DNA of 24,218 bases, taken from the IMG/VR virus record IMGVR_UViG_2537562231_000018, one strand, 5' to 3'. Under the pieces are notes generated by a model. It was not told where the DNA came from. It made no database searches and worked only from the letters and a program-made list of their open reading frames with translations. Origin of the DNA: a virus. Taxonomy: Duplodnaviria > Heunggongvirae > Uroviricota > Caudoviricetes. The translations under genes were made by a program, and so were the position numbers. Positions 1 to 24,218 of this stretch are shown here, in pieces (positions within the stretch are counted from its first letter, which is position 1; every line of letters starts with the position of its first letter).

Positions 1-142
1 CACCGTATGAGGATTCTTTAGGCAGATAATAATACTGGTCAGCCCATTCAACTGCCGTCATCGGTACAACCCTGACCAGAGGCTGCAGCGCAACCGAAAC
101 GGCAGCCATCATATTATTCAGTTGTTGCTCTGATATATTCAT
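1..142 (-). CDS. A: terminase large subunit (lambda gpA-like), N-terminal 47 codons; gene continues beyond window start
   Basis: Reverse complement of 1..142 translates MNISEQQLNNMMAAVSVALQPLVRVVPMTAVEWADQYYYLPKESSYG, matching the conserved lambda gpA N-terminus (TAVEWAD..YYLPKES). ATG at 142..140 overlaps the 3' end of the Nu1-like gene as in lambda. Confidence 0.8.
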   Translation of the reverse strand, partial: MNISEQQLNNMMAAVSVALQPLVRVVPMTAVEWADQYYYLPKESSYG

Positions 143-623
143 CGAGTAAATCCGGTAATTTATCCCCTGCCCGCGCACACTGATTTGCCCCCTTAGCAAT
201 AAGGGTTTTCAGATGGTCAAGATGGCGCGGTGTTAAATCAGGAAACTGTCGCTGCATGGATAAAGGGATGGAATCAAGCGTACTGGATAACGCCATTGCC
301 AGCTTACTGAGGGCAAAAATACAGAACCCGGTGTCAATAAGTTTTCCTTTTGACACCTCATTTTCTAACTGCTGTGTAACAGCCTGTTCTGCTGTCAGTT
401 CCCATCTGGCAATAAGCAATTTCTCCTCATAGTCGTCTTCGCTATCGCCATCAGGCACATCGTTTTTACTTCTCCTCAGATACGATATGTAAAAATCGCG
501 CCAGGCATCCAGATCCAGTTGCCCTCGCTTATTCGATATCGGGGCACCCGGCAATTTCTGCAATCTGCGAAGCTGGCGATCGGTCAGACTTAAATGCCTG
601 GCAACTTCAGTCTGCGTAGCCAC
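114..623 (-). CDS. nu1: terminase small subunit (Nu1-like)
   Basis: 169-aa ORF whose C-terminal two thirds (TGFCIFALSKLA..LPLSMQRQFPDL..RHLDHLK..LLDEYI) aligns with lambda Nu1; N-terminal DNA-binding region is divergent. GTG start at 623 with GAGG about 6 nt upstream; lies directly downstream of cos. Confidence 0.85.
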   Translation of the reverse strand: MATQTEVARHLSLTDRQLRRLQKLPGAPISNKRGQLDLDAWRDFYISYLRRSKNDVPDGDSEDDYEEKLLIARWELTAEQAVTQQLENEVSKGKLIDTGFCIFALSKLAMALSSTLDSIPLSMQRQFPDLTPRHLDHLKTLIAKGANQCARAGDKLPDLLDEYIRATTE

Positions 624-670
624 TCCTCACCTCGCAAAAACTCTCACCTCACAATCACAACAAAACCGGT

Positions 671-769
671 CATGTCCGGTTTACATGTCTGTTTTTTGTT
701 CATGTCCGGTTCACAGAAGACCTGTTTTTATATTTTTCATATAGTTAACTTGAAGAGAAACCGGACATG
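671..769. repeat. cosB-like terminase-binding repeats (three ACCGGACATG elements; 671..681 and 701..711 direct, 759..769 inverted) flanking an AT-rich bend region
   Basis: Three copies of CATGTCCGGTT / AACCGGACATG between cosN and the Nu1 start, arranged like lambda R3-I1-R2-R1 but with a different sequence, consistent with the divergent Nu1 N-terminus. Confidence 0.6.
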
Positions 770-807
770 GATCCCGGAAAATTTTCATAAATAGCGAAAA
801 CCCGCGA

Positions 808-851
808 GGTCGCCGCCCCGTAACCTGTCGGATCGCCGGAAAGGACCCACG
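808..851 (-). other. cos: cosN cohesive-end site with lambda-type right-end sequence
   Basis: Reverse complement of 808..851 is GTGGGTCCTTTCCGGCGATCCGACAGGTTACG followed by GGGCGGCGACCT; the minus-strand continuation GGGCGGCGACCTCGCGGGTTTTCGCTATTTATGAAAATTTTCCGG matches the lambda left end as I recall it. The 12-nt cohesive end would be 808..819. Confidence 0.8.
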
Positions 852-1025
852 AAAATGATAATAATTATCATCTACATGAGGTTTATCACGACATGTGTGT
901 ACGCCATCAAACCACGAGAAATAATCAATTATTACGCAGGTATCGTATTAATTGATCTGCATCAAATTAGCGTAAAAGCAACTTCGGATAATACAAATCA
1001 GCAACACTGAATACGGGGCAACATT

Positions 1026-20952: not shown

Positions 20953-21299
20953 TCTCACTCCCATCAGGTACCCGTATCTGGCTCGTTGCCGGCGTTACCG
21001 ATATGCGTAAATCCTTCAACGGACTGGGAGAACAGGTACAACATGTGCTGAATGATAATCCCTTCTCCGGTCACCTGTTTATCTTCCGTGGCCGACGGGG
21101 TGACACCGTCAAAATTCTTTGGGCTGATGCTGATGGTCTGTGCCTGTTCACCAAACGCCTGGAGGAAGGCCAGTTTATCTGGCCTGCGGTACGTGACGGC
21201 AAGGTATCCATTACCCGCTCGCAACTGGCAATGCTCCTCGATAAGCTGGACTGGCGTCAGCCAAAAACTTCCAGCCGTAACTCACTGACAATGTTGTAA
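20949..21299 (+). CDS. IS66-family orfB (TnpB), copy 2
   Basis: 116 aa; RIWLVAGVTDMRKSFNGLGEQV..HLFIFRGRRGDTVKILWADADGLCLFTKRLE. Confidence 0.85.
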   Translation: MISLPSGTRIWLVAGVTDMRKSFNGLGEQVQHVLNDNPFSGHLFIFRGRRGDTVKILWADADGLCLFTKRLEEGQFIWPAVRDGKVSITRSQLAMLLDKLDWRQPKTSSRNSLTML

Positions 21300-21329
21300 A
21301 AAACTCCTGACCGCATTATAAAAACGGTC

Positions 21330-22943
21330 ATGAGTCAGAAATACCTCATTCGCATCGCAGAGCTGGAAAGGTTGCTCTCTGAGCAGGCTGAAGCCCTCCG
21401 TCAGAAAGACCAGCAACTGAGTCTGGTTGAAGAGACGGAAGCCTTCCTGCGCTCTGCACTGACACGTGCCGAAGAAAAGATCGAAGAAGATGAACGGGAA
21501 ATAGAACATCTGCGGGCTCAGATAGAAAAACTGCGCCGGATGCTGTTCGGTACCCGTTCTGAAAAACTGCGTCGTGAAGTTGAACTGGCTGAGGCTCTGC
21601 TGAAACAACGTGAACAGGACAGCGATCGTTAACAGTGGGCGGGAAGACGATCCTCAGGTTCCCCGCCAGTTGCGACAGTCGCGCCATCGTCGTCCGTTAC
21701 CGGCACACCTTCCCCGTGAAATACACCGCCTGGAGCCAGAAGAAAGCTGTTGCCCGGAGTGTGGCGGTGAGCTGGATTATCTGGGGGAAGTCAGCGCAGA
21801 ACAACTGGAACTGGTGAGCAGCGCCCTAAAAGTGATCCGCACAGAACGGGTAAAAAAAGCCTGTACAAAATGTGACTGCATCGTTGAAGCACCGGCACCA
21901 TCCCGCCCGATAGAGCGTGGTATCGCGGGCCCGGATTACTTGCCCGCGTGTTAACGGGAAAATACTGCGAACATCTGCCACTGTATCGTCAGAGTGAAAT
22001 CTTTGCCCGCCAGGGTGTCGAACTGAGCCGGGCCTTACTCTCCAACTGGGTTGACGCGTGCTGCCAGTTAATGACACCGGTGAATGATGCCCTGTACCGT
22101 TATGTAATGAACACCCGCAAGGTTCACACTGATGACACACCGGTAAAGGTACTGGCACCGGGTCAGAAAAAGGCGAAAACAGGGCGTATCTGGACGTATG
22201 TCCGGGATGATCGCAATGTGGGTTCGTCATCTCCTCCAGCGGTCTGGTTCGCGTACTCGCCGAACCGGCAGGGGAAACACCCGGAGCAACACCTCCGCCC
22301 CTTCCGGGGTATCCTGCAGGCGGATGCGTTCACAGGTTACGACAGGTTGTTCAGTGCAGAACGTGAAGGTGGTGCACTGACAGAAGTTGCGTGCTGGGCC
22401 CATGCCCGGCGAAAAATCCACGATGTATACATCAGCAGCAAAAGTGCGACGGCAGAAGAAGCCCTGAAGCGAATCAGTGAACTGTACGCCATCGAGGATG
22501 AAATACGGGGATTACCGGAGTCAGAGCGTCTTGCCGTCAGGCAGCAGCGAAGCAAAGTGTTACTGACGTCGCTGCATGAATGGATGGTGGAGAAGAATGG
22601 TACGCTGTCGAAAAAATCCAGACTGGGCGAAGCGTTCAGCTATGTACTGAATCAGTGGGATGCCCTCTGTTATTACAGTGATGACGGTCTGGCGGAGGCG
22701 GATAATAATGCTGCGGAAAGAGCGCTTCGTGCAGTCTGTCTAGGAAAGAAAAACTTTATGTTCTTTGGCAGCGATCACGGCGGCGAGCGTGGAGCACTGT
22801 TGTACGGGCTGATCGGCACCTGCCGTCTGAACGGTATCGATCCGGAAGCGTATCTGCGCCATATCCTGAGCGTACTGCCGGAATGGCCTTCCAACCGAGT
22901 TGACGAACTCCTGCCATGGAACGTAGTACTCACCAATAAATAA
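21330..22943 (+). pseudogene. IS66-family transposase (orfC) broken into three ORFs by two frameshifts
   Basis: ORFs 21330..21632, 21610..21954 and 21948..22943 together align along the copy-1 TnpC; the second break coincides with a G-run (GGCCCGGATTAC where copy 1 has the equivalent of GGCCCGGGATTAC). Confidence 0.8.
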
Positions 22944-23064
22944 GCGTCAATACGGTGCTCCGTTGACGCTTACACAAGAGAAAACACGAACGGGAGTTAT
23001 TAAATAAAATATGCATTCTTTCAATGCTGGCCCGTTTACGTCCGATACAAAAAGGATGCTGGCA

Positions 23065-23256
23065 ATGAATACAGCATTTGCACTTGTTCTGACAGTTTTT
23101 CTTGTTTCCGGAGAGCCAGTTGATATTGCAGTCAGTGTTCACAGGACAATGCAGGAGTGTATGACTGCAGCAACCGAACAGAAAATTCCCGGTAACTGTT
23201 ACCCGGTCGATAAAGTTATTCACCAGGATAATATCGAAATCCCGGCAGGTCTTTAA
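23065..23256 (+). CDS. hypothetical small secreted protein (63 aa, signal peptide)
   Basis: MNTAFALVLTVFLVSGEPVDIAVSV.. with AAGGA SD; tracker ORF starts further upstream at 23011. Confidence 0.45.
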   Translation: MNTAFALVLTVFLVSGEPVDIAVSVHRTMQECMTAATEQKIPGNCYPVDKVIHQDNIEIPAGL

Positions 23257-23349
23257 AACAGTTCCGTAATAAATATCCGGTTTCATTCTTATATGCCAGC
23301 AATGGCAGGGATTTGTTCATCCTTAAATCTGTCATGAGGTTAAAACAAA

Positions 23350-24218
23350 ATGAGTAAAGTCTTTATTTGCGCCGCCATTCCTGACGAACTGGCAACAAGG
23401 GAAGAAGGCGCTGTGGCTGTAGCCACAGCTATTGAAGCTGGCGACGAACGCCGTGCTCGAGCAAAATTTCACTGGCAATTCCTGGAACATTATCCGGCTG
23501 CTCAGGACTGCGCTTATAAATTTATTATCTGCGAGGATAAACCTGGCATACCCCGCCCTGCCCTCGATTCATGGGATGCTGAATATATGCAGGAAAACCG
23601 CTGGGATGAGGATTCTGCTTCTTTTGTCCCGGTTGAGACTGAATCCGATCTGATGAACGTCACTTTTGACAAGCTGGCCCCTGAAGTACAGAACGCTCTC
23701 ATGGTTAAGTTCGACACATGTGAAAACATCACCGTTGATATGGTTATTAGCGCACAGGAATTGTTGCAGGAAGACATGGCAACATTCAACGGACATATCG
23801 TTGAAGCGTTGATGAAAATGCCAGAAGTTAACGCCATGTATCCGGAGCTTAAGCTGCATGCCATCGGGTGGGTTAAGCATAAATGTAAGCCTGGTGCCAA
23901 ATGGCCCGAAATTCAGGCAGAGATGCGCATCTGGAAAAAACGTCGCGAAGGTGAACGCAAGGAAACCGGAAAATACACGTCTGTTGTTGATCTCGCCCGC
24001 GCCAGAGTCAATCAACAGCACACTGAAAATTCAACAGGGAAAAATCAGCCTGGTCATTGCTGCCATTCATCGCGAATACAAGCAGACATGGAAAACACTG
24101 GATGACGAACTGGCCTACGCTCTCTGGCCTGGTGATGTGGATGCCGGAAACATTGACGGCAGCATCCATCGCTGGGCAAAAAATGAAGTTATCGACAACG
24201 ACCGCGAAGACTGGAAGC
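23350..24218 (+). CDS. hypothetical acidic early-operon protein; ORF stops at 24105 but a second frame stays open to the window end
   Basis: 251-aa ORF 23350..24105; a +1 frame encoding ..ISLVIAAIHREYKQTWKTLDDELAYALWPGDVDAGNIDGSIHRWAKNEVIDNDREDWK is open from about 23820 to 24218 with no plausible start of its own; one fewer A in the A5 run 24040..24044 would join the two. Confidence 0.4.

Follow-up and report, generated by a model that had tools for sequence, protein, structure and literature searches.

In the draft sequence of a lambdoid prophage of Escherichia coli 3431, several genes are broken by single-base changes, among them those for the Q antiterminator and a repressor-like protein. 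The question was whether the prophage is decaying or whether the breaks arose in the assembly of its sequence.

The contig and its relatives

The window analysed here was the entire contig ADUM01000122.1 (24,218 bp) of the draft genome of strain 3431 (GCA_000184765.2). It contained terS and genes for PerC, Rz/Rz1, lysozyme, holin, a SASA esterase, TerB, Q, RusA, DUF968, YdaT, the repressor, DicB and a YdfE exonuclease, with two IS66-family insertions on board. The ADUM01 and EFU95xxx protein accession series placed the draft at about 2010, which we take to be in the period when pyrosequencing (454/Newbler-type) chemistry dominated. A literature search for the strain and its accessions turned up nothing on the sequencing platform.

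This prophage, its ISEc22 insertion included, also occurred in five independent assemblies (L031, L036, L037, L039 and L040) at 99.75–99.96% identity. All five encoded a 273-aa Q and a 139-aa repressor where these were covered, and PerC was 104 aa in L031 and L037. The ten comparisons among these relatives gave 0–6 SNPs and not a single indel. SASA, terS and Q products exactly like those of the strain were found only in its NCBI record. This suggested that the reads of strain 3431 itself were absent from the Logan collection. When complete E. coli genomes were searched for the contig or for the junction between the second IS66 copy and dicB, none covered 80% or more. A search of phage collections returned distant mosaics only.

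One-base indels private to the window

Comparison with the relatives gave 13 one-base indels, nine deletions and four insertions, that were private to the window:

1256–1645, minus strand: PerC-family gene, one T lost at 1455–1457 (T4 to T3), private to the contig
1747–1753, intergenic: private 1-bp deletion, A7 run where the relatives have A8
2110–2576, minus strand: Rz/Rz1 spanin genes, 1-nt deletion at 2281, non-homopolymer
2906–2907, minus strand: codon 2 of a 60-aa ORF conserved in the relatives, private loss of one C (C3 to C2)
2972–2974, intergenic: private loss of one T (T4 to T3) in the gap separating the lysozyme gene from the 60-aa ORF
4353, intergenic: private insertion of C, 3 nt past a C8 run
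4406–4408, intergenic: one A lost (A4 to A3), private
7428–8248, minus strand: Q antiterminator gene (PF03589), one T lost at 7764–7768 (T6 to T5)
18554–18972, plus strand: repressor-like gene, one A lost at 18697–18702 (A7 to A6)
19008–19013, intergenic: one A gained (A5 to A6), private
21631–21632, plus strand: tnpC of the second IS66 copy, one A gained (A1 to A2), creating TAA, private
21930–21932, plus strand: the same tnpC, one C lost (C4 to C3), 29 nt from the edge of a substitution patch
23350–24218, plus strand: 5' part of a YdfE-type 3'-5' exonuclease gene, one G gained at 24037–24039 (GG to GGG)

Eight were in coding sequence, in the genes for PerC, Rz/Rz1, the 60-aa ORF, Q, the repressor, tnpC (twice) and the exonuclease. 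The other five were intergenic, and the distribution thus gave no sign of selection. Between positions 1 and 19,681, all ten one-base indels were private, every covering relative disagreeing with the window. Eleven of the 13 were shared neither with the close relatives nor with independent assemblies, and so did not show the inheritance of genuine pseudogenes. An apparent extra T at 23340 was common to 10 of 11 relatives, and it was dropped from the private list.

Only about 11 SNPs were private to the window. Against each of the five relatives, the window showed 3–11 gap openings, and its one-base gaps per SNP (0.33–0.64) were 7–12 times the family baseline of 0.053 (median 0.05, maximum 0.15; 52 pairs). 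Given 11 SNPs and a ratio of 1:10, the Poisson probability of at least ten indels was 3e-7. Set against the zero indels among the five relatives, the window gave Fisher P = 0.0005–0.004, a control of limited power because these relatives are closely related to one another. The cluster was well beyond chance.

The indels were biased toward homopolymers, nine being at runs of at least 3 (P ~2e-8) and four at runs of 2 or less. They were also clustered. The middle 14 kb held just one of the 13 (P = 2.5e-4), and the rest were concentrated in paralog-rich segments. The exact products of the frameshifted Q, Rz, exonuclease and PerC ORFs were found nowhere outside the GCA_000184765.2 assembly.

All the disruptions listed in the preliminary description (Q, the repressor, the second tnpC, the last ORF, Rz/Rz1 and the TerB TAG) were present in the contig, but those at 1455 (PerC), 2906 (60-aa ORF), 1747, 2972, 4353, 4406 and 19008 had been missed. 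The breaks had been taken for 1-bp deletions. This was correct for Q, the repressor and the second tnpC break; the first tnpC break (+A) and that of the last ORF (+G) were insertions. Two positions also needed revision: the last-ORF break lay in the G run, not in the adjacent A5 run, and the second tnpC break lay about 10 nt to the left of where it had been placed.

PerC, Rz/Rz1, YdfR and the exonuclease

The deletion in PerC shifted the frame after codon 63. The ORF stayed open and would encode 129 aa instead of 104.

The break in Rz/Rz1 was at a non-homopolymer site, as previously described. It lay within a substitution patch (2211–2314) where two types of Rz allele are combined in the window as a mosaic, at the junction of the two, and it joined the N-terminus of Rz to the frame of Rz1. 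A 155-aa Rz product was not called in L031 and L037. This was attributed to the choice of the gene caller, as their DNA matched intact alleles.

A longer deletion was also private to the window:

3932, minus strand: YdfR/DUF1327 gene, 6 bp deleted in frame here through loss of one CAGTAA unit from a tandem repeat

It shortened the product from 114 to 112 aa, and was probably real.

In the exonuclease gene, the extra G led to a stop at 24105, the protein of the relatives being 823 aa long. It was lacking in nine of nine relatives, and contigs without it had 0–2 mismatches to the window in 1.25 kb. A similar product of 251 aa (P0067) was rejected as a contig-end partial with a native tail.

The TerB stop codon

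7122–7124, minus strand: TAG in the TerB-like ORF, a Glu codon in intact 142-aa versions

This codon had been grouped with the suspect breaks. It was found, however, at 11 of 15 loci, those of all five close relatives among them, and is a genuine old allele.

The IS66 insertions

12549–15002, plus strand: IS66 copy 1 (ISEc22), intact; 8-bp duplication is CGCCATTT
20442–22973, plus strand: IS66 copy 2 (ISEc23-like), interrupting dicB; 8-bp duplication is ACAAGAGA
21798–21900, plus strand: ISEc43-like patch with 8 substitutions, each in the third position of a codon

Both insertions are genuine, with clean 8-bp duplications. Copy 1 differed from those of the relatives by one SNP and no indels. 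The insertion in dicB was not present in L040, L041 or any complete E. coli genome searched. The private SNPs, the 6-bp deletion and this insertion, being genuine, indicated that strain 3431 is not identical to the comparators, which counts against an artefact.

The tnpC gene of copy 2 was split into three ORFs. The extra A at 21631 was lacking in nine of nine ISEc23 copies. At least seven short-read contigs of other genomes ended exactly at this position, which suggested that it is a repeat branch point. Nineteen contigs encoded an identical 100-aa tnpC fragment, which was rejected as support for the extra A because these products are contig-end truncations. The loss of C at 21930 was matched by only one other ISEc23 copy, in the unrelated L007. 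A 331-aa tnpC fragment in 77 contigs did not mean that this deletion is widespread, since most came from a different loss of A in an A7 run. The ISEc43-like patch may be a mosaic of natural origin, or it may reflect a chimeric consensus.

The Q and repressor breaks

The Q gene was split into ORFs of 166 and 129 aa, with the sense strand reading TGG AAA AAG TCA at the break, and the repressor gene was split into ORFs of 89 and 84 aa. Both genes were intact in all close relatives covering them (Q in five of five). A private SNP was also present at 7788, 24 nt from the Q break.

The shorter alleles were not confined to strain 3431. The A5 allele of Q also occurred in eight SRA-run assemblies of other, non-closest lineages. 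The A6 allele of the repressor, likewise from non-closest lineages, was found base-for-base identical in at least eight further assemblies. Of 822 complete genomes, 2 carried it and about 819 had the in-frame A7 allele. This suggested that both sites are also natural slippage hot spots. The two breaks are therefore less certain to be errors: the close relatives are intact, but the same alleles exist in short-read assemblies of other strains. Their occurrence elsewhere counts against an artefact at these two sites, and the Q and repressor breaks, at least, could be real in strain 3431.

If real, they might also be partly functional. A low level of -1 ribosomal frameshifting at G_GGA_AAA_AAC (repressor) or G_AAA_AAG (Q) would regenerate exactly the intact protein, and sites of the types A_AAG, G_GGA_AAG and A_AAA_AAC are shift-prone (PMC5009743). 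At the repressor junction (AAG GGA AAA AAC), the canonical heptamers G_GGA_AAA and A_AAA_AAC overlap in the zero frame. The arrangement resembles the frameshift sites in dnaX (A_AAA_AAG) and IS1 (A_AAA_AAC), both in these heptamers and in the AAA_AAG of Q, and in the restoration of the full-length product by a -1 shift. The shorter alleles also recur in independent assemblies of unrelated strains, in backgrounds otherwise identical or near-identical.

On the other hand, the Q junction (TGG AAA AAG) is only partly canonical, its heptamer being non-canonical in the P site. Folding of 67 nt downstream found no stimulatory RNA structure at either site (z = +0.62 for the repressor and -1.50 for Q). 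Unlike in dnaX and IS1, the two-frame arrangement was not conserved: the alleles are rare, and all the closest relatives were in frame. Both sites are also among the 13 private indels, for which error is the best explanation. Programmed frameshifting was rejected as the main reading on account of the in-frame repressor of about 819 of 822 complete genomes and the lack of a stimulatory fold. It is quite improbable that the two alleles are real slippage alleles giving leaky or switchable regulator settings. The broader proposal, that the A-tracts of Q (A6/A5) and the repressor (A7/A6) are natural slippage switches of the prophage family, with shorter alleles partly functional by -1 slippage, is if anything slightly more doubtful. 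If it were true, slippage in Q and the repressor would be a reversible or leaky setting of the lysis-lysogeny regulators.

Origin of the one-base breaks

The absence of the one-base breaks from near-identical copies of the prophage in other assemblies suggested that they are most likely draft errors, not gene decay. We interpreted the window as a largely intact prophage with a genuine pair of IS66 insertions and an old TerB nonsense mutation, in which the 13 private indels would mostly be artefacts of a draft assembly of about 2010. From the sequence comparisons, we put the probability of this reading at about 0.75. The earlier suspicion that most of the breaks are artefacts was thus supported by the near-identical copies lacking the Q, repressor, PerC, Rz and exonuclease breaks, and by an indel:SNP ratio far over the baseline.

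Two routes would probably have contributed. Pyrosequencing-type miscalls of homopolymer length could have produced indels in both directions. Merging of reads from paralogous prophage or IS copies could have given a chimeric consensus, which would account for the Rz patch with its indel, and for the tnpC indels beside the ISEc43-like patch and at the repeat branch point. Paralog mis-assembly was also indicated by the coincidence of two indels with substitution patches and by the four at short runs. Homopolymer over- and under-calls that appear in one assembly only, are blind to coding and produce spurious split ORFs are typical of 454/Newbler-type drafts. The density of about 1 per 1.9 kb, however, is high for a finished 454 consensus, which counts against an artefact, and the platform is itself deduced from the age of the draft.

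Long-read (nanopore or PacBio) consensus errors, to which the breaks had tentatively been ascribed, also produce homopolymer single-base indels and false frameshifts. They do not fit here: a 24-kb contig in a fragmented draft from about 2010 is older than long-read assembly, 4 of the 13 indels were insertions, and some were at non-homopolymer sites. The effect was visible without any need of long-read assemblies of the relatives.

The alternative is that the indels are real and that the prophage of strain 3431 is decaying, perhaps favored by a mutator (mismatch-repair-deficient) history. E. coli commonly carries defective lambdoid prophages in which Q, lysis and repressor genes are broken, the alleles of Q and the repressor are natural elsewhere, and this prophage has suffered real damage from two IS insertions and the TerB stop. 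It shares its gene set, IS insertions and inherited TerB nonsense with cryptic prophages of the Qin, Rac and DLP12 type. Nine of the 11 private SNPs were transitions, and a mutator inflates both transitions and homopolymer indels. Against this, decay marks of the Qin/Rac/DLP12 type are inherited; the TerB TAG and ISEc22 are shared with relatives, but the 13 one-base indels are not. The indel:SNP ratio was about 1:1, and even at the ratio of 1:4 assumed for a mutator, as known from mutation-accumulation work, at least ten indels had P = 6e-4. Several indels were at runs of 1–3 or at non-homopolymer sites, they were bunched instead of uniform, and two were at mosaic or repeat junctions. Over 1,249 bp, nothing but the exonuclease insertion truly distinguished the window from L046. 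Decay specific to this strain was therefore considered unlikely.

Significance

At face value, the contig suggests a prophage whose genes for Q, the repressor, the spanins, PerC and the exonuclease are dead. Early drafts like ADUM01 would in this way inflate pseudogene counts, calls of prophage viability and inferences of 'domestication'. The main value of the finding is in quality control, and the approach, in which near-identical copies of an element in independent assemblies are found and their indel:SNP ratios compared, is a reusable test that needs no reads. The comparison indicates that the prophage is essentially intact, its only reliable lesions being the TerB nonsense mutation, ISEc22 and the ISEc23-like insertion in dicB.

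Identity and gene content of the window

Exact protein matches (EFU95394-EFU95441) identified the window as the complete 24,218-bp contig ADUM01000122.1 of Escherichia coli 3431 (GCA_000184765.2). It is a lambdoid prophage segment, whose gene order was read from annotated relatives and the Pfam marks on the called genes. No complete RefSeq E. coli genome covering at least 80% of the window was found.

Gene order in the window
terS, YlcI, PerC
Rz/Rz1, lysozyme, YdfR, holin
SASA esterase, DUF3927, TerB
Q, RusA, DUF968, hok, DUF551
ISEc22
replication genes, YdaT
Cro-like gene, repressor-like gene, DUF1391
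dicB with the ISEc23-like element inside, DUF1482
5' start of a YdfE-type 3'-5' exonuclease gene

The window's DUF968 protein was used to retrieve relatives. This gave five independent assemblies carrying the same prophage, with ISEc22 at the identical site and 99.75-99.96% identity to the window.

Close relatives
L031, GCA_048120945.1
L036, GCA_052185235.1
L037, GCA_025270535.1
L039, GCA_039736085.1
L040, GCA_047714545.1

Disrupted genes

All six disruptions listed in the preliminary description were present in the window sequence.

Disruptions
T5 run at 7764-7768, Q, split into ORFs of 166 and 129 aa
A6 run at 18697-18702, repressor, split into 89 and 84 aa
tnpC of IS66 copy 2 (ISEc23-like), in three pieces
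exonuclease ORF, ending at 24105 with a frameshifted tail that matches no other protein
2281, Rz/Rz1, 1-nt deletion at a non-homopolymer site
7122-7124, minus strand, TAG in the TerB-like ORF

Three of the breaks needed correction. The first in tnpC had been read as a deletion, but a base has been inserted there (+A at 21631). At the exonuclease break, too, a base was gained (+G, GG>GGG, 24037-24039), and the adjacent A5 run has lost none. A deletion does account for the other tnpC break, where a C is missing from a C4 run (21930-21932). The comparison also added a PerC frameshift (-T at 1455), which left the ORF open and lengthened it to 129 aa, a -C at 2906 in codon 2 of a 60-aa ORF, and five intergenic indels (1747, 2972, 4353, 4406 and 19008).

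Excess of private indels

Q was a single 273-aa gene in all five relatives. The repressor was likewise undivided (139 aa) in each of the four covering it (L031, L036, L039 and L040), and PerC was 104 aa in both that covered it (L031 and L037). The interval 1-19681 has ten 1-bp indels, and a site-by-site tabulation showed all of them to be private, with the covering relatives unanimous against the window. For 22970-24218, seven further independent contigs were available at 99.7-99.84% identity. Locus L046 had no mismatch to the window here, and the extra G at 24037 was the sole real difference. This G was absent from all nine relatives.

Four substitutions within 29 nt (34-62), near the contig start, separated the window from both covering relatives. 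Either noise at the end of the contig or the edge of a recombination event in the terminase region accounts for them.

The five relatives differed from each other by 0-6 SNPs and no indels (ten comparisons), and the window differed from each by 3-11 gap openings.

Indels and SNPs
Private SNPs: about 11, excluding two substitution patches (34-62 and 2211-2314)
Private 1-bp indels: 13
1-bp gaps per SNP, family baseline: 0.053 (median 0.05, maximum 0.15; 88 pairs, 546 kb)
1-bp gaps per SNP, window against relatives: 0.33-0.64
Poisson P, at least 10 indels given 11 SNPs at 1:10: 3e-7
Poisson P, as above but with 1:4, the ratio assumed for a mutator: 6e-4

The 1:4 indel:SNP ratio for mutators is that of the mutation-accumulation literature. 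Nine of the 13 indels lay at runs of at least three (P about 2e-8 per run). Because five were intergenic, there was no sign of purifying selection. Only one fell in the central 14 kb (P = 2.5e-4). The remainder were in the late-gene and immunity/dicB/exonuclease segments, of which many E. coli genomes have several copies.

These comparisons suggested that the frameshift cluster is most likely an artefact of an early draft assembly (probability roughly 0.75). Decay of the prophage, the other source considered, is less likely, since the window's ratio of gaps to SNPs stood far above the family baseline. The general suspicion of sequencing error in the preliminary description was thus borne out by the private indels and their excess. 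Its proposed cause, deletions in a long-read consensus, was not: there are insertions as well as deletions, and the assembly predates long reads.

Rz and tnpC

The deletion at 2281 fell within a patch in which the sequence of the window alternates between two types of Rz allele. The window's Rz allele was not found in complete genomes (top match 97.8%). On the minus strand, the deletion shifts translation from the Rz frame to the embedded Rz1 frame, giving a fused 134-aa ORF (2172-2576) that begins as Rz and ends as Rz1. One lesion breaks both spanin genes.

In tnpC, the +A at 21631 was absent from nine other ISEc23 copies, and the -C was shared by only one of them (L007). The -C is 29 nt from a patch (21798-21900) that departs from ISEc23 by eight substitutions, each at a third codon position, and whose closest match was ISEc43. 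Copy 2 is an ISEc23/ISEc43 mosaic, the product of either natural gene conversion or a chimeric consensus. The extra A coincided with the exact terminus (after ...GATCGT) of contigs from at least seven other short-read assemblies (L061-L067), indicating a repeat branch point among IS66-family paralogs. Both the Rz and tnpC patterns may have arisen by merging reads of paralogous copies into one consensus; natural recombination is the alternative source of both.

A 100-aa tnpC fragment, identical in 19 other contigs, was considered as a real +A allele and rejected, these being contig-end truncations. Seven large-contig genomes (L003-L006 and L008-L010) carried ISEc23 copies with a -A in the tnpC A7 run (equivalent to window 21852), encoding a 193-aa or 161-aa fragment plus a 331-aa fragment. 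The sample is biased, as these genomes were chosen for encoding the 331-aa fragment. The copies are either a widespread defective lineage or homopolymer errors in their assemblies.

Q and repressor alleles

The repressor region, including the A6 tract, was base-for-base identical in at least eight other assemblies (519-bp background; L011-L019). Among 822 complete genomes, two had A6 and about 819 had A7. The Q A5 allele (window 7760-7775, minus strand) was found in eight assemblies of independent SRA runs (L052-L059), where both Q and the prophage differ slightly from those of the window. Both tracts are thus hot spots of natural slippage. Few sequences carry the shorter alleles, however, and the relatives closest to the window have the long form. 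In the window assembly, roughly one 7-run in 12 and one 6-run in 36 had been hit. From this per-run rate, we judged error to be several-fold to tens-of-fold likelier than a real rare allele at these two sites.

The frameshift in L052-L059 gives 166 and 114 aa, and an N6/N4 methyltransferase gene lies downstream in that prophage. The window also has a private non-synonymous transversion in Q (7788, Pro>Gln), 24 nt away from the likewise private indel. This residue was Pro or Ser in every other retrieved Q, intact or split.

It is very improbable that the shortened alleles are read through by a -1 ribosomal slip. Such a slip is predicted to restore the exact full-length protein in both (139 aa for the repressor). 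The repressor zero frame (18685-18705) reads AAG GGA AAA AAC, with overlapping canonical heptamers G_GGA_AAA and A_AAA_AAC, and the Q site reads TGG AAA AAG. Sites of this kind are prone to frameshifting in E. coli (PMC5009743). The two-frame arrangement was not conserved, as seen from the prevalence of A7 in the complete genomes, and no downstream structure was found at either site (z = +0.6 for the repressor, -1.5 for Q).

Genuine features

Of 15 loci examined in diverse lambdoid prophages, 11 had the TerB TAG (L001, L002, L020, L022, L025, L031 and L036-L040), the five close relatives among them, and PGAP labels it 'internal stop' in complete genomes. Its recurrence across these sequences indicates that it is real. 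Conservation of the ORF downstream of the TAG is 99-100%, and other genomes of the O157 type have intact versions of 142 aa.

An in-frame loss of 6 bp at 3932 is probably not an error of the homopolymer type. The window has one CAGTAA tandem repeat copy fewer, and its YdfR/DUF1327 protein has 112 aa instead of 114. No other assembly contained the 112-aa form.

The two different IS66-family elements (12549-15002 and 20442-22973) each have a clean 8-bp target duplication. The ISEc22 insertion (duplication CGCCATTT) is common to the five relatives and so was inherited. The ISEc23-like element (duplication ACAAGAGA) disrupts dicB and occurs in strain 3431 only.
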